Positions 1,594 through 23,581 of a DNA stretch of 64,000 nt are shown one piece after another; position 1 is the first letter of the stretch; every line of letters begins with the position of its first letter. The notes under the pieces were generated by a model. That model was not told the origin of the DNA, ran no database searches, and saw nothing but the letters and a program-made list of their open reading frames with translations. This DNA comes from Escherichia coli. Lineage in GTDB: Bacteria > Pseudomonadota > Gammaproteobacteria > Enterobacterales > Enterobacteriaceae. The stretch lies in the NCBI RefSeq assembly GCF_024298765.1, contig NZ_CP101210.1. The stretch is one strand, 5' to 3'. A program made the translations under genes and the position numbers.

Positions 1594-2234
1594 CGTACAG
1601 CCTCCGCAATCCGACCCAGCACCGTGTTATAAATCAGGCGCTCATCTGCCTGGCTGATACCCAGCAGCTCACGTACCGGGTAATCGGTGAAAATGCCCGG
1701 CGCAACCTGATCGCGCTCACCGAACTGATGAACGCGTGCAATACGTGCGGCCACGCCGCTGTAACCCACCGTCACACCGGAAGCATCTGCACGGGCTTTC
1801 AGGTAGCGGGCGGTGCGCAGTTTTACGAACATGGGGACGCGCTTTGTGCTGTCCTGGTTGATGCGCCGGGTGCGTATTTCCAGAAAACGGTCGATGTCAT
1901 CCCGGTAAAACGTGCGGATATTGTTTTTATCCTCATCCCACCCGGTAATGGTTCGCCCGTATTTCCCCGTGTCGTGATGCCAGTTTTTCAGCGTGCGTGC
2001 TTCGTTATTCCAGATAAAGCGAATGCGCTCCTGTATCCGGGTTACGCGGCGTCTGCGAGGTGTCCACGCGGTCCCGTCCGGCGCTTTCTGTGACCGGATA
2101 CGTGCCTGCTGGGCGCGGCGTAAATCCTGTGCCAGCTTTCTGGCGATGTTATTGATGACCTGCTGATTCAGGCTGTCGCGGATGGCCTCAAAGGTTTCAT
2201 CCACACGGGTGAATGCCTTATCCATCGCTTTCAC
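1590..2234 (-). CDS. tail completion / virion morphogenesis protein (gpS-like); true start may be internal
   Basis: ORF between R and V in P2 order; 214 aa is longer than P2 gpS so the start is uncertain. Confidence 0.7.
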   Translation of the reverse strand: MKAMDKAFTRVDETFEAIRDSLNQQVINNIARKLAQDLRRAQQARIRSQKAPDGTAWTPRRRRVTRIQERIRFIWNNEARTLKNWHHDTGKYGRTITGWDEDKNNIRTFYRDDIDRFLEIRTRRINQDSTKRVPMFVKLRTARYLKARADASGVTVGYSGVAARIARVHQFGERDQVAPGIFTDYPVRELLGISQADERLIYNTVLGRIAEAVR

Positions 2235-2685
2235 CCCACGTCACATCCTGGAATACATGCGACCAGTCGCCTTCGGAAGAGGGCAGACGGGGTTTTGGCT
2301 CTGGCAGGTGTTCTGCCTGCGGTGTACCCTGACTGCTGCGCGTAATGCGAACGCGTTCCCGCAGGGGGAGCGTAAACAGGAGATCGGCGCTGTCATCGTC
2401 ATTGATAACGGCGGAAAATTTGATGTCCTGATTACGCTCCGGATTGAGCAACAACTGTGGCTGATTTTCGGATAACCACGCCAGTAGCGGCAGCGTGAGG
2501 TCGTCCAGCTCCCCGGCGTAATCCATGACAAACATCACCATCTGATAGCGGTAAACAAACGAGGGCGTTTCTCCGGTCGTTTCAATGTTGCCGCTCTCCA
2601 CGAAAATGGTGAATTTTTCCGGGTTGGCCTGACACCATCGGCATGAACGGGTCATGGCTTCACGCAGGGAATCAGTTTTCAGCAT
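2218..2685 (-). CDS. tail completion protein R (gpR-like)
   Basis: 155-aa ORF, same size as P2 gpR, located after the lysis cassette. Confidence 0.75.
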   Translation of the reverse strand: MLKTDSLREAMTRSCRWCQANPEKFTIFVESGNIETTGETPSFVYRYQMVMFVMDYAGELDDLTLPLLAWLSENQPQLLLNPERNQDIKFSAVINDDDSADLLFTLPLRERVRITRSSQGTPQAEHLPEPKPRLPSSEGDWSHVFQDVTWGESDG

Positions 2686-2962
2686 GGTTGTTGTCCTCGT
2701 TGTTCAGTCGTTGCAGCCTGCGCTGTTCCAGTAATTCAATGGCCCGTTTATCCGCGTTACAGGTTTCCAGTGCATCCAGAAGGCGGTCGCCCCATATACC
2801 GAGATTTCCCCATGTGGGAGTGTCAGGGAAGGGGGGAGGCGTTACCGGTATGGTCAGCGTCTGCGGTATAAGCCGGACTGACGGCGCTGGCCGTGGCGCG
2901 TTCTGCGTGCCTGCGCAGCCTGTCAGTAAAACGAGCGTCAGGCAAAGCGTGGGCGCATTCAT
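2672..2962 (-). CDS. o-spanin (LysC/Rz1-like outer-membrane lipoprotein), start at internal Met
   Basis: Signal peptide with lipobox LLTGC; proline-rich; nested out of frame in the 3' part of the i-spanin gene. Confidence 0.6.
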   Translation of the reverse strand: MNAPTLCLTLVLLTGCAGTQNAPRPAPSVRLIPQTLTIPVTPPPFPDTPTWGNLGIWGDRLLDALETCNADKRAIELLEQRRLQRLNNEDNNHAEN

Positions 2963-3230
2963 CTTTTGCAATATCGTTGCGTAGCTGTTCACGTCTTGCC
3001 TCTCCGTCCTGATTGCGTTGCTGATTTTCCACGCGGAGTTGCGCCAGCACCTGCTGCATATCCTGTACCCCGGCGCTAATGATATTCAGGGTGTCGGCGG
3101 TACGTTTCAGGGTGCTGGCCTGCGCTTCGTTTCTGGCGTTCTCCCGGCCCAGCGACCATGACAGACGCATGGATGTTCCCCATGCGGCAATCAGAAGGAA
3201 AGCGACACCCAGCGTGGGCCAGAGCTTCAT
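2823..3230 (-). CDS. i-spanin (LysB/Rz-like), start at internal Met49 of the track ORF
   Basis: ATG at 3230 overlaps the endolysin stop (ATGA); N-terminal TM (LWPTLGVAFLLIAAW) followed by a charged coiled-coil-like region. Confidence 0.6.
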   Translation of the reverse strand: MKLWPTLGVAFLLIAAWGTSMRLSWSLGRENARNEAQASTLKRTADTLNIISAGVQDMQQVLAQLRVENQQRNQDGEARREQLRNDIAKDECAHALPDARFTDRLRRHAERATASAVSPAYTADADHTGNASPLP

Positions 3231-3619
3231 GCCGGATAGACTCCGTGTGGTAACTGAAAATGCGGTCCGTCTTTCAGGGTCTTCCAGTCGCCGCCCCATT
3301 CCACCGGAATATTCAGCTCCCGGCTGGCCTGTCTGAATGCTGCTGCGATTTTTTCGTACAGCGGCCATTCCCATGACACCTGGCTGCCGATATAAGCCAC
3401 AACATCCACGGCATGTCCCGTAAGGTGGCGGCTGTTCATGGTCTGGCTCTTACCTGTGGCCACAAGTTGCTTCTGGCGGTAACGGCTGCGCAACCCTTCG
3501 GTGATACCAAAATCCACTTCCGAAATTTCCAGTGCCCGTCGGGTCACTTTCACCAGATCAGGATTTACGCCCTGCAAATTCTTTTCGCTCCGGCTGCTGA
3601 ATTTAAATGTGTTGCTCAT
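3227..3619 (-). CDS. endolysin, peptidase M15-like (L-Ala-D-Glu / D-Ala-D-Ala peptidase type)
   Basis: 130 aa with SRHLTGHAVDV zinc-peptidase-like motif; sits between holin and spanins. Confidence 0.7.
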   Translation of the reverse strand: MSNTFKFSSRSEKNLQGVNPDLVKVTRRALEISEVDFGITEGLRSRYRQKQLVATGKSQTMNSRHLTGHAVDVVAYIGSQVSWEWPLYEKIAAAFRQASRELNIPVEWGGDWKTLKDGPHFQLPHGVYPA

Positions 3620-13551: not shown

Positions 13552-16344
13552 CTATCGTGTTCGATGCAATAAACTGATTTTTTTGCGAGCATGTTTAGTG
13601 GTTTCACTGATTCTCTGTGCGTGCTCTGCGTCGCGGATGGCGCGCAGCATGTCAGAAAGTACGGTAACGGGTGTTTTCATGGTGTTCTGGTCTTGCTGAA
13701 GTGTGGATGCCAGGCGTGCGGCGGCTTCAGGGTCTGATGCCTCTAGTTGTTCCAGATAGCTGGCGACCGGGTTATGGCGGATCTCCGTGCTGCTTACGCC
13801 GTGATTACGACTCAGGCGTTGCCAGAGCTGCGTGATTCGGCTGTCCGGGCGGGTATCCTGTTTGCGTACAATTTCAAATCCCTGCGGTGCAATGATGCTG
13901 CCGCCAACGTACAGACTGCCGCCTCGTAACAGGTGCTGCATCTGCTGTTCACCGATATGCAGGCCGAGAGATTCAGCAGACTCCCGCCATTCTTTAGCGA
14001 GTAACTCGTGGTTATCAGGCAAAGGCTGTGGCTGTTTGCGGCTCTGTGTCCAGTTCTGCATTTCATCACTGCTGTTTTTTGCCTGTTTGTCACGCAGCGA
14101 ACGCATCAGTGCCCGGCGTTCGTGCCGTTTCAGTGAGCGCATCCATTCATTCACGTCAACGCCTTCAGGAAGCCGCGGCCACGGTGCTGGCCGTTCTTCC
14201 GGCTGTTCTGTCCCGTTGTTGTCCGTTTCCTGTACACGGGGACAGTTATTGCCACGAGTCCAAGGGGCGGCAGGGCCGCCCTGAAGGTCAAAACCATTTT
14301 CGCGGGCGCTGTCTTCCGTTTCCGGTTTACGTCTTACCAGTTTCCAGTTATCCGGATGCGTGCACACACGGGAGGATTCCCCGATGAGTGGTGACCAGAT
14401 CCCGTAAATCTGTACGCTCTGTTCGCCGTAATCATTCAGCTCATCTGCGAGGTCGTAGGCGGTGCGAATCAGGTAGTCTTTGCGTGGAACAAGTACGCCG
14501 CCCTGTTTTTCAATGTAGGTGGCAAAACACCCGGCATCGGCGGCAGCGAGTACCGCATCCATTGCGTCATCTTTCAGTCGTTGCGGGCCTTCCGGGTTGC
14601 GTGCCATCTGGCTGGCAAGGCGGCGCAGTTCACGCCACACCTGACGGGAGGGGATGCCAAAGAACTGGAACTGGCGGACCCGATGAAGGCGCGCCCAGCC
14701 GATGGCGCGCTCCACACTCTCGGCCATTGATTTTCCGGTTTCGTGGTCAACGCGTGGCTTGCCCGTTTTCGGGTCGATGCCATCCACGGCGCGGCTGTCC
14801 AGGTTCTTTCCGATGTAGGTCGCGATATAGCTGGTTGGTGTGCCTTTTGAGCCGTCGACATACTCCGCCTTAAAGCGCGGAGTAATATCATTGCCCAGCT
14901 CGTGGCGGTCTTCCTGAATGGCAATATCGCGGGTGATGGCCACGATGCTGTCGATTTCTTCCGGATGAGCAAAGACCATCATATGCCAGTGCACGGTGCC
15001 GTCATGGTGAGGCTCCACCGTGCGGATGCCATACCAGCGAAGACCGTCGCGGTTCAGTTTTTTGCGGACCGCCGCAAAAAACGTGTTAACCAGGTAATCG
15101 CTGGAGTCGCGCATGGTGGCCCCGTTCCATTTGGGATTCGGATGACCGTTCTCTGTTGTGGCGTGGTATTTTGACGGGCAGGTGACAGTCAGAAACACCG
15201 CTTTGTCGCCACGGGCTTCGGCCAGAAGTTCCAGCCCCTTCATGGTGGCCATCATTTCTGCCTTACGGTGAACCGGGTTACTTACTCCCGCGTAATACAC
15301 CGTCTCGAGATCAATCGTGAACCCGTCTTCGTTTTCCAGCATGAAACTTTTCAGGAAATCGCGTGTTTTCTCGCGCTGTGCGCGAAACTCGCTTAACGCG
15401 TCCTGGCTCAAATAGGGCGATGTTTTTCTGGAAACCAGACAGGCGGCGCGGAGTTGTTCTTCTCTCCACTCGCAACGTAACAGCCACAGTTTGCGTTTCC
15501 ACCATTCCGCACAGGTCAGGCGAAGGATTGCGCCCGGCAGCAGTTCTGTGTCCGGTTCGTTCCTCCGGTCTTTGTCTGTTGTCAGTGCGTCATAATGCGG
15601 AGGCATGGCGTGCAAGTGTAACGCCATGCGGGCCAGCATCTGATACGCCTTCAGCGTTACATCCATGGTCAGCTCGCCATCGGTCGCGCCAAAACCATCG
15701 CAGAGTTTTTCGAAGGTGCTGCTGAACATCGCCGCCGTCATGGTGGCCAGCGTCTGTATCTGGTGTTTGTTGAGTTGCGGCAGGTAAAGCAAATCGTCCA
15801 GGCGTTCACGTCCGGCAAGGGACCGATAACCCGGTGTCAGCCAACGGCTGTCGGTGCGGTCCAGACGTACGAATATTTTGCGCAGGGTTCCGCGCGCGTA
15901 GCGTTCAGCCTGCCAGCTCTTTTTGCCTTTCTGACGATCGGATTCCTGTTTTTTGCGCAGGAAAGAGAGGTGGCGGCTCAGAGGTTCACGCAGATAAACG
16001 GGAAGCACCTTCAGTGTGGCAAAAGCACGGGCCACCGGGTCTTGTTCTGTTGCCTGACGCTTGCTGATGATGCTTTGTGCCAGCTTTTCACGCTGTCCGG
16101 CTTCCTCAAGGGATGCCATGAGTTTTTTACCCACGGTGGATTGTGCGAAAAAGGCTTCCTCCTTCGCTTCCTGTTCTTTCCGGGCCTTTTTGTCCGCCTC
16201 AAGGTAGTAACGGATGGCGCGTTGCAGCTCGGTTTCAGTTTCCTGCCTGCGCTCCGTAAATCTGTCCGGATCAATGGCTGGCCGTGGTTCATTCCAGCTC
16301 CATGCAAACTCACTCATGGCTGGTATCCCGTCACGCGCTGCCAC
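13552..16344 (-). CDS. replication initiation endonuclease (P2 gpA-like, rolling-circle HUH type)
   Basis: 930 aa with HWHMMVFAH HUH-type motif; position between early genes and cargo as P2 A. Confidence 0.8.
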   Translation of the reverse strand: MAARDGIPAMSEFAWSWNEPRPAIDPDRFTERRQETETELQRAIRYYLEADKKARKEQEAKEEAFFAQSTVGKKLMASLEEAGQREKLAQSIISKRQATEQDPVARAFATLKVLPVYLREPLSRHLSFLRKKQESDRQKGKKSWQAERYARGTLRKIFVRLDRTDSRWLTPGYRSLAGRERLDDLLYLPQLNKHQIQTLATMTAAMFSSTFEKLCDGFGATDGELTMDVTLKAYQMLARMALHLHAMPPHYDALTTDKDRRNEPDTELLPGAILRLTCAEWWKRKLWLLRCEWREEQLRAACLVSRKTSPYLSQDALSEFRAQREKTRDFLKSFMLENEDGFTIDLETVYYAGVSNPVHRKAEMMATMKGLELLAEARGDKAVFLTVTCPSKYHATTENGHPNPKWNGATMRDSSDYLVNTFFAAVRKKLNRDGLRWYGIRTVEPHHDGTVHWHMMVFAHPEEIDSIVAITRDIAIQEDRHELGNDITPRFKAEYVDGSKGTPTSYIATYIGKNLDSRAVDGIDPKTGKPRVDHETGKSMAESVERAIGWARLHRVRQFQFFGIPSRQVWRELRRLASQMARNPEGPQRLKDDAMDAVLAAADAGCFATYIEKQGGVLVPRKDYLIRTAYDLADELNDYGEQSVQIYGIWSPLIGESSRVCTHPDNWKLVRRKPETEDSARENGFDLQGGPAAPWTRGNNCPRVQETDNNGTEQPEERPAPWPRLPEGVDVNEWMRSLKRHERRALMRSLRDKQAKNSSDEMQNWTQSRKQPQPLPDNHELLAKEWRESAESLGLHIGEQQMQHLLRGGSLYVGGSIIAPQGFEIVRKQDTRPDSRITQLWQRLSRNHGVSSTEIRHNPVASYLEQLEASDPEAAARLASTLQQDQNTMKTPVTVLSDMLRAIRDAEHAQRISETTKHARKKISLLHRTR

Positions 16345-18341: not shown

Positions 18342-18545
18342 TTAGCTGTTAGCCAAAGCGTCTTTTAACATCGCCACAAGGTTTACTTCAGGCTTTTCCA
18401 TTTTGGCACGTTTGGGGCGGATAATAATTCGACCGTCAGCCAACATCTTTTTGCATGTATTAAGAGGGATACCTGTTATCTCTGCATATTTCTGCAGGGA
18501 TACATAGGGGGCATTCACATTGATATTGATGGTTATACCTGACAT
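18342..18545 (-). CDS. Cox-like small DNA-binding protein (excisionase/early regulator)
   Basis: 67 aa; YVSLQKYAEITGIPLNTCKKMLADGRI resembles the Cox-type helix-turn-helix pattern; position in the early operon. Confidence 0.55.
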   Translation of the reverse strand: MSGITININVNAPYVSLQKYAEITGIPLNTCKKMLADGRIIIRPKRAKMEKPEVNLVAMLKDALANS

Positions 18546-18561
18546 CCCACTAGCCTCCTGA

Positions 18562-18768
18562 TCAGGAAGATTTGTTTTGTTCTTTCTGGGTTAGCTCTAG
18601 GCCGCGAAGGAAGATCATGCGCGCCATGTTAGAGGATGAGCGTTGTTCTTTAGTTGCCATTTCATCAATGACGGCTCGCTCTTCGAGGGACAGCCGAAGT
18701 GCCAGTCTTGGACCTGTGGCGGTGTTACGCGGAATGCGTGATCTGGTATCGTGAAGAACTTGTTTCAT
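18562..18768 (-). CDS. small ribbon-helix-helix-like regulator, first gene of the early operon
   Basis: 68 aa with RLALRLSLEERAVIDEMA; divergent from the repressor gene. Confidence 0.45.
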   Translation of the reverse strand: MKQVLHDTRSRIPRNTATGPRLALRLSLEERAVIDEMATKEQRSSSNMARMIFLRGLELTQKEQNKSS

Positions 18769-18843
18769 AGTGGTATATTGTGATCATCTAATAGCTCGTG
18801 AAATCATTTTGGTATCAAAAAAGATACCTGTCAAGGTTTTTGT
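18769..18843. promoter_or_regulatory. lysis-lysogeny switch region with divergent early and repressor promoters
   Basis: 75-bp AT-rich gap between divergently transcribed early operon and repressor gene, as in P2/186. Confidence 0.5.
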
Positions 18844-19248
18844 ATGAAAAATGATATTGGTCAGCGGTTGCGTGAGGAAAGGGAAAGATTGGGGCTTAGT
18901 CAAGTTGCTATGAGCGAAATTGGTGGAGTCAAAAAGCTAACTCAGCTTAGATATGAGAAAGGAGATAGCTTTCCTGATGCTGCGTATTTGGCAGCGCTGT
19001 CTCGTTTTGGCCTTGATGTTCAGTATGTTGTGTTGGGAATTCACTCACCTGAAACTTATAACGATGATGAGCAGGAGTTGATTACTCGCTTTCGAGCAGC
19101 TTCGTTAGATGTAAAAAACGCGGTGATCGGGGCTTTAAAAAGTGCGGGCAGTGAAAAGGAAACTCAGCCATCAGGGCGTGAGTTAAATATTTCTGGTGGT
19201 AATAACCGTATCGCTGGTCGTGACTATAACGAAACTAAGGGTAGGTGA
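18844..19248 (+). CDS. immunity repressor (CI/C-like, HTH XRE family)
   Basis: 134 aa; N-terminal LREERERLGLSQVAMSEIGGVKKLTQLRYEKG helix-turn-helix; divergent from the early operon. Confidence 0.75.
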   Translation: MKNDIGQRLREERERLGLSQVAMSEIGGVKKLTQLRYEKGDSFPDAAYLAALSRFGLDVQYVVLGIHSPETYNDDEQELITRFRAASLDVKNAVIGALKSAGSEKETQPSGRELNISGGNNRIAGRDYNETKGR

Positions 19249-19263
19249 TAGTAGGGAGGTGAC

Positions 19264-19914
19264 ATGGCCGTCAACTCAAACGGTTCAAACAATCGCGTTG
19301 CTGGGCGTGATTTTCACGAAAAGAATATTCAGATAGAGCGATATGATGGTTCTCATACCGTCAATATCGCAATCCCTTCGAATAATGATGATGACGCTCG
19401 CCCTTTGCTTAAGGCACAGCGTAAGGAGCTAAATAGCTTGGTTGCTGCTATTGCAGAAGCTAGCAATACTGAAGCGTTTATTATTTGGCAAAAAGTACAT
19501 GCGGAGATTGGTGTAGCTGGTATTGATGATATGACAATAAATCAATATAAAACAGCGGAGAGTTTTCTGCATGCAATGCTTGAGCGATGTAAAGATCATG
19601 ATGCCTGTAAGACTCTTGTAAGTTTATTACTACGTAACAGTGAAGACTGTGGACTTCGACAAAAACTTCTGCGGTATTGCCATATCAATTTCGGTACAGG
19701 ACGTTTAAACGATCTTACTCGTTCTCAGTTACAGTCTGCATTGTCGTGGTTAGAGCAACAATCGGTATCAAGCCACACAGAGAATTCGACCTTACCAGAA
19801 GTCCGCCTTCGTGCTTCAGAATTAATCCGATTTTATCCAAAAGAAATAATATTCTTTATCTGCGTAGGGGTTTTGGTAGGCGGAGCCATTTCTAGGATGT
19901 TTTTTAATTTGTAA
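19264..19914 (+). CDS. moron protein with C-terminal membrane anchor, unknown function
   Basis: 216 aa; GGGAGG 6 nt before ATG; AT-rich; C-terminal TM IIFFICVGVLVGGAI; lies between repressor and integrase. Confidence 0.55.
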   Translation: MAVNSNGSNNRVAGRDFHEKNIQIERYDGSHTVNIAIPSNNDDDARPLLKAQRKELNSLVAAIAEASNTEAFIIWQKVHAEIGVAGIDDMTINQYKTAESFLHAMLERCKDHDACKTLVSLLLRNSEDCGLRQKLLRYCHINFGTGRLNDLTRSQLQSALSWLEQQSVSSHTENSTLPEVRLRASELIRFYPKEIIFFICVGVLVGGAISRMFFNL

Positions 19915-21654: not shown

Positions 21655-22320
21655 ATGAAAACGGGACCGTTAAACGAAAGTGAGTTGGAATGGCTGGACG
21701 ATATTCTGACCAAATACAACACTGACCACGCCATTCTTGATGTGGCGGAGCTGGACGGTTTATTGACGGCGGTGTTGAGTTCTCCGCAAGAGATTGAACC
21801 GGCACAGTGGCTGGTTGCCGTGTGGGGTGGGGCTGACTATGTGCCGCGCTGGGCGTCAGAGAAAGAGATGACGCGCTTTATGAACCTGGCTTTTCAACAT
21901 ATGGCCGATACCGCAGAGCGTCTGAACGAATTCCCGGAGCAGTTTGAGCCGTTATTCGGCTTGCGAGAAGTCGATGGCAGCGAGCTGACGATTGTTGAGG
22001 AGTGGTGCTTTGGCTATATGCGGGGCGTGGCACTTTCTGACTGGTCAACGTTGCCCGATTCGTTAAAACCAGCGCTGGGGGCGATTGCGCTGCACGGTAC
22101 TGAGGAAAACTTCGAGCGGGTTGAGAAGATGTCGCCAGAAGCGTTTGAAGAGAGCGTAGATGCCATTCGACTGGCGGCGCTTGATTTACATGCATACTGG
22201 ATGGCGCATCCGCAGGAAAAAGCTGTTCAGCAACCGATCAAAGCAGAAGAGAAACCGGGTCGTAACGATCCTTGCCCGTGCGGCAGTGGTAAGAAATTTA
22301 AGCAGTGCTGCCTGCATTAA
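21655..22320 (+). CDS. yecA: YecA (UPF0149 family protein with C-terminal SEC-C zinc motif)
   Basis: 221 aa ending [13 protein letters not shown]; conserved gene order. Confidence 0.85.
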
Positions 22321-22329
22321 GAGGTCAAA

Positions 22330-22360
22330 TTGGGTGTCAGCGTTAATTCTGGCACCCAAT
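22330..22360. terminator. hairpin between convergent yecA and tyrP (possible bidirectional terminator)
   Basis: TTGGGTGTCAG ... CTGGCACCCAA inverted repeat; no clear T-run. Confidence 0.35.
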
Positions 22361-22369
22361 AAGATCTAA

Positions 22370-23581
22370 TCACCCCACTTCTGGTAACAACCCTGCCGCA
22401 ATCAAAAATTGCACGCCAATCACAGCAATACCACAGAGAAACACCACCACCAGCGCCGGACGACCACCTTTGACCCGGTAACCCGCCTGAGGATTGTGCT
22501 TTCTGCTTTGCCAGGTCAACAGCGAAGGGATAATCAATGCCAGTACCGCCAGCGCCACACCGGCGTAACCCAGCGCCATCACAAATCCTCGTGGATAAAA
22601 CAGTGCAAACGCCAACGGCGGCAGAAAGGTAATTGCACCAGTTTGCAATCTTCCACCAACGGTATTTGAACGCTGAAACAAATCTGCCAGATAATCAAAT
22701 AAGCCTAACGCTACGCCGAGGAAGGACGTGGCGAGGGCTAAATCAGCAAATAAATGCACTGCCAGCTCAACATGCGGAGAGGCCACCATTTCGCGTAACG
22801 CCTGTAACAGCCCGTTTAATCCGGCATGATTAGCCAGCAATCCCATAAAGGTTGTTGAATCAATGCTGCCAAGGGTCGCCAGCTGCCAGAAAATATATGC
22901 CACCAGGGGGATCGCACTACCGATTATAAACACCCAGCGTAGCTTACGAATGTTGCCATCCATATAGCTGACAATACTCGGCACGCTACCGTGAAAACCA
23001 AACGACGTAAAAATCACCGGGATTGCAGACAGTGCCAGTCCCTGTTGCAACGGCAGGGTTAAAAGATTCACTTTGTGAATATGCGGTAGCAGCAATACCA
23101 GCATCACCACCAGAAAAATAATTTTGGCGCTGAACAGAAAACGGTTAAATAAATCGACCAGCGATGTCCCGACACAAACCACGCCACCGGCAACAAAAGT
23201 GAACAACAGCACGCCAGCGGTTGCCGACATTGAAATACCTGTCCAGTCGCTGATGCTGGAGGCCAACAATTCACCGGCACCGCTGATGTATGCCGCAGTC
23301 AGAGCATACATTAAGAACATCATACTGAAGCCCGTCAGCCACTGACCGTAGCGTCCCAGATAGCGTTTTGCCAGCGTGCCCAGACCGGTATCTGCCGGGA
23401 CATGCTGGTACACCTCCAGTAGTAATAGCGCCGTGTAGCACATCAACGCCCAAAGCCCAATCAACAAGATTAACGTGACGCTAAAACCAACACCTGCCGC
23501 AGCCAGCGGCATTGCCAGCATGCCTGCGCCAATTGTGGTTCCCGCCACGATAAAAACACTTCCCAGAGTTCTGTTTTTCAC
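22370..23581 (-). CDS. tyrP: tyrosine-specific transport protein
   Basis: 403-aa polytopic membrane protein; sequence and context as E. coli tyrP. Confidence 0.9.

Follow-up and report, generated by a model that had tools for sequence, protein, structure and literature searches.

Matching terminal peptides on a prophage repressor and the neighbouring membrane protein point to a possible two-gene immunity cassette of temperate phages

A stretch of Escherichia coli DNA of 64,000 nucleotides (nt) (contig NZ_CP101210.1 of assembly GCF_024298765.1; hereafter the window) carries a P2-like prophage in its left part, and at positions 18,844 to 19,914 it encodes a predicted lysogeny repressor followed by a predicted membrane protein, here called the partner. 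The repressor ends in a peptide of ∼17 residues that is repeated at the N-terminus of the partner, and the two copies, referred to below as the twin motif, are conserved in relatives and vary together between lineages. We propose, tentatively and with somewhat less than even confidence, that the two genes constitute a conserved immunity cassette of temperate phages, in which the peptide copies would act as a cognate recognition pair. The pattern is widespread, clean and statistically strong; the mechanism is what we infer from it. A literature search found no description of the motif, or of phage proteins with the Flk_N domain that the partner contains. The cassette can be seen as a new variation on the logic of the SinR/SinI system, in which a repressor and its partner have a tail module in common; an interaction of the two proteins is what the sequences suggest.

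An earlier note on this DNA had described a motif shared by the C-terminus of the repressor and the N-terminus of the next open reading frame, and both peptides are indeed present there. The repressor ends in ...ELNISGGNNRIAGRDYNETKGR (elsewhere written ...LNISGGNNRIAGRDYNETKGR) and the partner begins with MAVNSNGSNNRVAGRDFHEKNIQ (elsewhere written MAVNSNGSNNRVAGRDFHE). The best local alignment between them, of LNISGGNNRIAGRDYNE with VNSNGSNNRVAGRDFHE, extends over 17 residues and has a BLOSUM62 score of 62; 2000 shuffles gave 29.2 ± 5.0 with a maximum of 61, and none of the 2000 reached 62. At the DNA level the copies form a 34-nt direct repeat, 74% identical, with a distance of 87 nt and in frame. 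When a hidden Markov model of the motif was run against all six frames of the window, it recovered only these two instances (E = 2.6e-10 and 2.6e-9), the next match having E = 0.22. The repressor and partner genes are in the same frame and 15 nt apart, and at their junction (Table 1) the three stops TGA TAG TAG follow one another in frame, ahead of a Shine-Dalgarno-like GGGAGG with a spacer of 4 nt. In Klebsiella-type relatives there is one stop only, and the gap between the two genes is 9 nt and in frame. Considered alone, the single pair at this locus is modestly significant; the strong evidence is its conservation in relatives.

All of the 120 partner homologues among the matches listed begin with a form of xVNSxGxxNRxAGRD[FY]xE, and ∼60 of the 120 repressor homologues among the matches listed end in [IV]N[IV]SGxGNR[VI]AGRD[YF][NH]ExKK. 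Repressors with this tail are found in Klebsiella, Salmonella, Yersinia, Serratia, Pectobacterium, Dickeya, Erwinia and Hafnia. On the partner side, residues S5, G7, N10, R11, D16 and E19 are invariant in 21 diverse homologues. A repressor gene is located 9-18 nt upstream of the partner gene, with both motif copies kept, in every distinct viral locus that has the partner gene (36/36). Self-alignment and comparison with relatives, which the earlier note had put forward as checks, thus agree that the similarity is neither insignificant nor unconserved.

The similarity also bears the mark of selection on the peptide. DNA identity between the two copies is 59-74%, and at residues identical in both copies the same codon is used in 4 of 10 cases at this locus, with 4.2 expected from codon usage; over 17 lineages, the corresponding figures are 65 of 152 and 68.5. 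Since codon agreement is at chance level, the similarity is kept at the protein level and leaves no trace of recent duplication or gene conversion, both of which are therefore rejected. The motif peptide is shown to be under protein-level selection in both genes. The suggestion of a local duplication or recombination scar in the earlier note fails on this point and on the conservation of the copies across genera; its other suggestion, that the downstream reading frame carries a module related to the repressor tail, gained support from co-variation of that module over some ten or more motif classes. In relatives, gaps of -4 to +42 nt and different frames are found between the two genes, and fusion by read-through is thus not conserved; with three stops here and all frames represented in relatives, a fusion protein made by stop-codon read-through was rejected. 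Pairing of the copies as RNA appears unlikely, as they are direct and not inverted repeats and the inverted repeats nearby are weak (72-79%).

The co-variation is seen in distant homologues of the repressor, in which the tails differ and the next gene opens with the matching variant in all but a few of the cases examined. Among the Mu-like prophages and the other P2-like ones of Pectobacterium, Gilliamella, Pseudomonas and others, there are some ten or more forms of the motif. The tail and the partner N-terminus read QIFNGDISGQFAGNQIIN and QEFNGTAQGQFSSRDIIN in a Mu-like prophage of Pectobacterium, GEGQIAGGNIY and AEQIAGRDIY in Gilliamella, QQFNGPVGTVTSGDVVN and QQFHDRVHQVAAGDIKN in Pseudomonas, QVFHGAVSGGVAARDIINN and QEFQGNVDGGVAGRDIVNQ at locus L148, and VTQHINSSGGQVAGRNIIN and VTQEINRNDGQVAGRDINN at locus L196. 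At loci L153 and L191, MEIKGDNNVQI is set against MKITGNGNTQV or MTIQGNNNTQV. Further matched pairs are present at L192, L194, L224, L145, L124, L126, L247, L248 and L249. At the last of these (positions 1682-3310, in a P2-like prophage) an extra gene of 88 amino acids (aa) stands between the repressor and the Flk_N partner, and the match persists, with the tail MVVHGDVGQTVKGNV still matching the partner N-terminus NIIHGDVGIVAEGDV.

For 23 representative pairs, the mean score between tail and N-terminus was 48.4 for cognate and 27.1 for non-cognate combinations, and none of 50,000 permutations reached the observed cognate sum. With one pair per motif class, the classes not being fully independent samples, the sum was 729 as compared to 448 ± 39. 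Copies within a lineage were more alike than the same copy between lineages in 214 of 253 lineage pairs. Shuffling the cognate pairs with their composition preserved lowered the score from 45.6 to 18.4 ± 1.0, which rejects amino-acid composition as the source of cognate similarity. An old duplication followed by independent drift would predict equal similarity of cognate and non-cognate copies, and this is not seen; with synonymous sites saturated, selection must keep the peptides matched. The AGRD class (P0157/P0170) and the FNG..GQF class (L081) both occur in Pectobacterium, each matched to its own partner, and a host factor is therefore unlikely as the target of the motif.

The repressor matches PHROG 8 (transcriptional regulator, E = 1.8e-14), and a profile of its family matched the P22 C2 repressor in the PDB (E = 2.5e-5) as well as the Xre-family regulator of ICEBs1 (7t8i). 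Its Pfam scores fall just below the gathering cut-offs, with 24.6 bits for HTH_31 (cut-off 27 bits) and likewise for HTH_19 and HTH_3. From these matches it is predicted to be an XRE-type phage repressor with a helix-turn-helix (HTH) of the Cro-CI type. AlphaFold2 (AF2) models were read by their predicted local distance difference test score (pLDDT) alone. The repressor model has confident helices over residues 1-102 and a tail with pLDDT < 50, giving a layout of N-terminal XRE-type HTH, helical region to about residue 102 and flexible tail. The repressor core is one family across all cassettes, recognisable by RL[RK]EERERLG. A self-cleaving repressor of the LexA or lambda CI type was rejected, as the protein has 134 aa and no S24 peptidase domain in Pfam, PHROGs or NCBIfam; the 'AG' within the motif is a two-residue resemblance to the LexA-like Ala-Gly cleavage site and nothing further.

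The partner matches PHROG 5825 (E = 2e-101). Pfam PF27202 (Flk_N) is annotated on a 97%-identical protein (P0001) and on nearly all partner homologues, and the partner is assigned this domain. The match to the NCBIfam Flk model PRK10715 is partial, covering residues 38-168 with 55.4 bits against a cut-off of 353. The C-terminus is hydrophobic at residues 193-216, a property conserved among homologues, and in the AF2 model a helical bundle (pLDDT > 90) is followed by a terminal helix at residues 192-215. The partner thus fits a tail-anchored topology like that of Flk, with a C-terminal anchor and a cytoplasmic body. A profile search of 1.84 billion representatives yielded 136 relatives. True Flk proteins among them have 300-430 aa, two matched Flk_N stretches and an MQPxSG start without the motif; relatives of the phage type have 180-230 aa, one domain and one anchor, and nearly all open with some variant of the motif. 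Identification of the partner as Flk itself (the PRK10715 equivalog) was rejected because it scores below the cut-off and has one Flk_N repeat and 216 aa. An ImmA/IrrE metalloprotease with an HEXXH motif was rejected too, no such domain being present in Pfam, PHROGs, NCBIfam or PADLOC. Searches of Pfam, PADLOC and NCBIfam detected no toxin, anti-sigma or phosphotransferase (PTS) family in the partner. PADLOC gave no match for the partner or the DUF2511 protein encoded downstream, and weak HTH-level matches for the repressor; the PDB sequence search gave no relative of the partner family. One representative of 270 aa (P0350) has an N-terminus resembling, by eye, a phage regulatory domain of the Rha/antirepressor type and a Flk_N-like stretch at residues 98-177, and Flk_N would here be linked to phage regulation in another manner.

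Across the cassettes, the partner always has hydrophobic segments of the membrane-spanning type, and the remainder is variable. Its forms include Flk_N with one transmembrane (TM) anchor, a zinc ribbon with TM (L130), proteins of 136-173 aa with hydrophobic segments, and proteins of 260-340 aa with TM and a Cys-containing C-terminal domain. The cassette is found in P2-like as well as in Mu-like backbones. Where a homologous repressor lacks the tail, as do P0222 of E. coli and P0240 of Pseudomonas, the gene behind it is unrelated and has no motif. As a rule the tail and the partner motif are found together, and in nearly all cases the repressor and partner genes are neighbours. The N-terminus of some partners (P0279, P0332, P0335; L154, residues 10-50) has a tandem double motif, for example KNRTAGRNYYEV...NNVAGRDVIHV, which hints that the motif might stack or self-associate.

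Several observations weigh against a cognate recognition pair. In the NRxAGRD class, cognate partners rank anywhere from 1 to 8 as matches and are not consistently first, so that specificity is shown at the level of classes only. The repressors at L180/L182 and L223 keep a motif-like tail (e.g. SFHGPVGQAAQGDIKN) without a matching neighbour, and at L180/L182 the next gene has a signal-peptide-like N-terminus; the partner of these repressors may have been lost or relocated. No fused HTH-partner homologue (a 'Rosetta stone' protein) was seen among the matches listed. In an AF2 model of a repressor-linker-partner fusion, based on a paired alignment of 27 rows, both motif regions are coil with pLDDT 30-40, and a mini-construct of two tails and two N-termini, in which the motifs are again low-confidence coil, had a mean pLDDT of 30.7; the models lend the pair no support, though they do not speak against binding either.

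A cognate recognition pair is the simplest and the most likely of the explanations considered. The XRE-type lysogeny repressor bears at the end of its tail a motif of ∼17 residues rich in Gly, Asn, Arg and Asp, and the next gene, a few nt on, encodes a predicted inner-membrane protein that repeats this motif in its first 20 cytoplasmic residues. The N-terminus of the membrane protein might pair with the repressor tail, or it might mimic the tail and compete for the surface that the tail binds on the repressor. By either route, a membrane-bound partner translated from the same mRNA would be physically linked to the repressor or would regulate it. Synthesis of the upstream protein ends with the tail and that of the downstream protein starts with the N-terminus, an order that would favour polysome-bound assembly. 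We infer physical contact of repressor and partner from the matched peptides; as a consequence, the partner could sequester the repressor (anti-repression) or stabilise it, or the repressor could hold a membrane effector in check, and we make no choice among these. A more far-reaching version, possible and yet doubtful, is that the twin peptide serves as a hitherto unrecognised 'address code' that would tether the lysogeny repressor of each temperate phage to its own membrane protein through a matching terminal peptide. The result would be a membrane-coupled lysis-lysogeny or exclusion switch, specific to the immunity type and portable between P2-like and Mu-like phages, with different membrane modules behind the same adaptor.

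Both copies could instead be short linear motifs read by one further component, which might be a protease, an adaptor, a chaperone or an antirepressor of the phage, with co-regulation or co-degradation of the two proteins and no contact between them. Predicted disorder of both motif regions is usual for linear motifs, two copies tracking one receptor would co-vary as well, and the repressor core is the sole constant folded part of the cassette. However, the differing motif classes in the single host genus Pectobacterium argue against a host factor, the cassette occurs in otherwise unrelated P2-like and Mu-like backbones with no other shared gene visible nearby, and neither a third motif copy nor a candidate reader was found in the 64-kb window. 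We regard such a reader as unlikely. A receptor site on the repressor core would be a hybrid of this explanation and the cognate pair.

It seems more improbable still that the motif is a self-association element used separately by the two proteins, for higher-order oligomerisation of the repressor in cooperative operator binding and for clustering of the membrane protein, with no cross-talk and a match due to shared ancestry. The tandem copies in some partners (P0279; L154) would fit stacking, and the short strands that AF2 predicts in the mini-construct fall on the motif. Yet independent use does not predict copies that are matched by lineage, as found in the 214 of 253 lineage pairs, when synonymous sites are saturated, and it leaves unexplained why tail-less repressors are without such a partner. 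Finally, a neutral remnant with no present function (whether of local duplication, of recombination that left a scar, or of a gene fission in which the junction was duplicated) would account for a direct repeat in the same frame 87 nt apart and for genes in frame in most Enterobacterales relatives, but it is already contradicted by a peptide conserved across genera and phage types with randomised synonymous sites, by the variable gap and frame in relatives, by the three consecutive stops here and by the lack of fused homologues among the matches listed, and can be dismissed as highly improbable.

Known systems share parts of this arrangement. In SinR/SinI and SlrR/SlrA of Bacillus subtilis, the product of an adjacent gene shares the C-terminal association module of an XRE-type HTH repressor and, through its copy, changes the activity of the repressor in a hetero-complex. 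Of the systems compared, this one is closest in its logic, in which the tail of the repressor recurs on a neighbour protein, and the cassette agrees with it in that the partner shares the repressor's C-terminal module, as a conserved and co-varying motif of 17 residues. The module itself differs: in SinR/SinI it is a helical hook of ∼40 residues, whereas here it is a Gly/Asn/Arg/Asp-rich peptide of ∼17 residues, predicted as coil or short strands with pLDDT < 50. SinI is small and soluble and is encoded upstream under its own promoter, while the partner is a membrane protein encoded directly downstream and apparently co-translated. The cassette proteins have no Sin family match in Pfam and no sequence relationship to SinR/SinI.

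The gene order, XRE repressor followed by a regulator of the repressor and an integrase, is that of ImmR/ImmA/Int in ICEBs1 and phages of the phi105 type. ImmA, however, is a soluble metalloprotease that cleaves ImmR, and the partner is without a protease domain in Pfam, PHROGs, NCBIfam and PADLOC; ImmR and ImmA are also not known to share a motif, unlike the pair described here. In membrane-held transcription regulators (the anti-sigma factor RseA with sigma-E, Mlc with PtsG) and in type II toxin-antitoxin pairs in which the C-terminal tail of an XRE antitoxin binds the toxin, a soluble DNA-binding regulator controls the product of a co-transcribed or partner gene, or is under its control, via a flexible end or at the membrane. 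None of these pairs is known to have the same peptide on both partners. Flk ('Fluke') of Salmonella and E. coli is a cytoplasmic protein that inhibits the switch of flagellar type III secretion and is anchored by its C-terminal tail (PMC13344023). It has in common with the partner the Flk_N domain and the cytoplasmic C-tail-anchored topology, but it is longer (300-430 aa), has two Flk_N stretches and an MQPxSG start without the twin motif, compared to one domain and a 55-bit match in the partner, and it is chromosomal and unpaired with a repressor. By analogy, the cassette would follow SinR/SinI in its logic and ImmR-ImmA-Int in its gene order, with the topology of a regulator held at the membrane.

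The repressor, the partner, the DUF2511 gene and the integrase gene (int) form, in that order, one gene string on the + strand, and a terminator scan found no terminator-like site on this strand between 18844 and 21298. The Arc-like and Cox-like genes are on the opposite strand, 75 nt upstream of the repressor gene, and int is downstream of it. This is the position of an immunity region in a temperate phage, divergent from a Cox/Arc-type operon and near int. Coordinates are given in Table 1.

Table 1. Features of the repressor-partner region and its surroundings in the 64-kb window
Feature	Position	Strand	Basis or remarks
gpA-type replication protein	13552-16344	-	P2-like prophage
DUF4761 protein	left part of window		prophage gene
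Divergent early genes, Arc-like and Cox-like	18342-18768	-	
Cox-like excisionase/repressor	18342-18545	-	PHROG match (PHROG 3431 and PHROG 575 for the Arc-like/Cox-like pair)
Arc-like repressor	18562-18768	-	PHROG match (as for the Cox-like gene)
Promoter-like site, leftward	18834-18806	-	candidate early promoter
Predicted prophage immunity repressor, XRE-type, 134 aa	18844-19248	+	
Twin motif copy 1, LNISGGNNRIAGRDYNE	19183-19233	+	repressor residues 114-130, four residues ahead of the stop
Junction between repressor and partner genes	19246-19263	+	read from sequence
Partner gene, 216 aa	19264-19914	+	twin motif, one Flk_N domain, C-terminal TM anchor
Twin motif copy 2, VNSNGSNNRVAGRDFHE	19270-19320	+	partner residues 3-19
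Flk_N domain, predicted cytoplasmic	19375-19767	+	partner residues ∼38-168; NCBIfam PRK10715 alignment range, confident AF2 helices
C-terminal hydrophobic anchor, EIIFFICVGVLVGGAISRMFFNL	19840-19911	+	sequence; hydrophobic C-terminus kept in homologues
DUF2511/YebY-like protein, 115 aa	19944-20291	+	signal-peptide-like hydrophobic N-terminus; Pfam DUF2511 E = 1.3e-5, above cut-off; PHROG 2950
Tyrosine integrase, 333 aa	20297-21298	+	Pfam Int_N and Phage_integrase; final gene of the rightward string

Of 5426 complete E. coli genomes, 524 (∼10%) have a match to the region, in 504 cases over at least 80% of its length, and the cassette was found as well in prophages of Klebsiella, Salmonella, Yersinia, Serratia, Pectobacterium, Gilliamella, Pseudomonas and others. 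In the GenBank phage collection it is found only in Escherichia phage 520873 (Peduoviridae, Xuanwuvirus; NC_049344.1), to which the region is 97% identical; Ralstonia phages gave weak Flk_N-like matches and the Pseudomonas partner had no match in that collection. In the phage 520873 record (L246, 3197-4239), there is no annotation for the Flk_N and DUF2511 genes, the Flk_N gene shows up in tblastn as four fragments, and the integrase is divided between two coding sequences; the broken genes look like sequencing or assembly frameshifts. As the partner gene is uncalled in the reference phage annotation, the module has so far been invisible in databases.

To our knowledge, the cue on which non-lambdoid temperate phages (P2-like, Mu-like) leave lysogeny is poorly understood, and many of them are regarded as non-inducible. 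A repressor tail copied on a co-translated membrane protein, with the copies co-evolving, would point to a simple link between the cell envelope and the lysogeny switch; alternatively, it could mean a membrane effector that is restrained by the repressor. The motif classes lend themselves to swap experiments.

Some minor features of the locus were also noted. The DUF2511 family is found after a tail-less homologous repressor in a Pseudomonas locus (L166, 4036-4368) as well, so that its association with the repressor family does not depend on the twin motif. Between the divergent genes, the control region of 75 nt (18765-18855) contains a direct repeat, TCATAGTGGTAT and TCATTTTGGTAT, with a spacing of 39 nt. 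An imperfect inverted repeat (18803-18821 and 18837-18855) is also present there and extends over both the start codon of the repressor and the leftward promoter-like site. These operator-like repeats, noted for 18769-18843, are candidate operators. A tRNA scan found no tRNA gene anywhere in the 64-kb window, and the integration site is therefore not a tRNA. The prophage end adjoins host genes (window positions 21655-23581), of which yecA is named from the annotation in the matching phage record; the second, which encodes a multi-pass membrane protein of 403 aa on the - strand, we take by its position to be tyrP.

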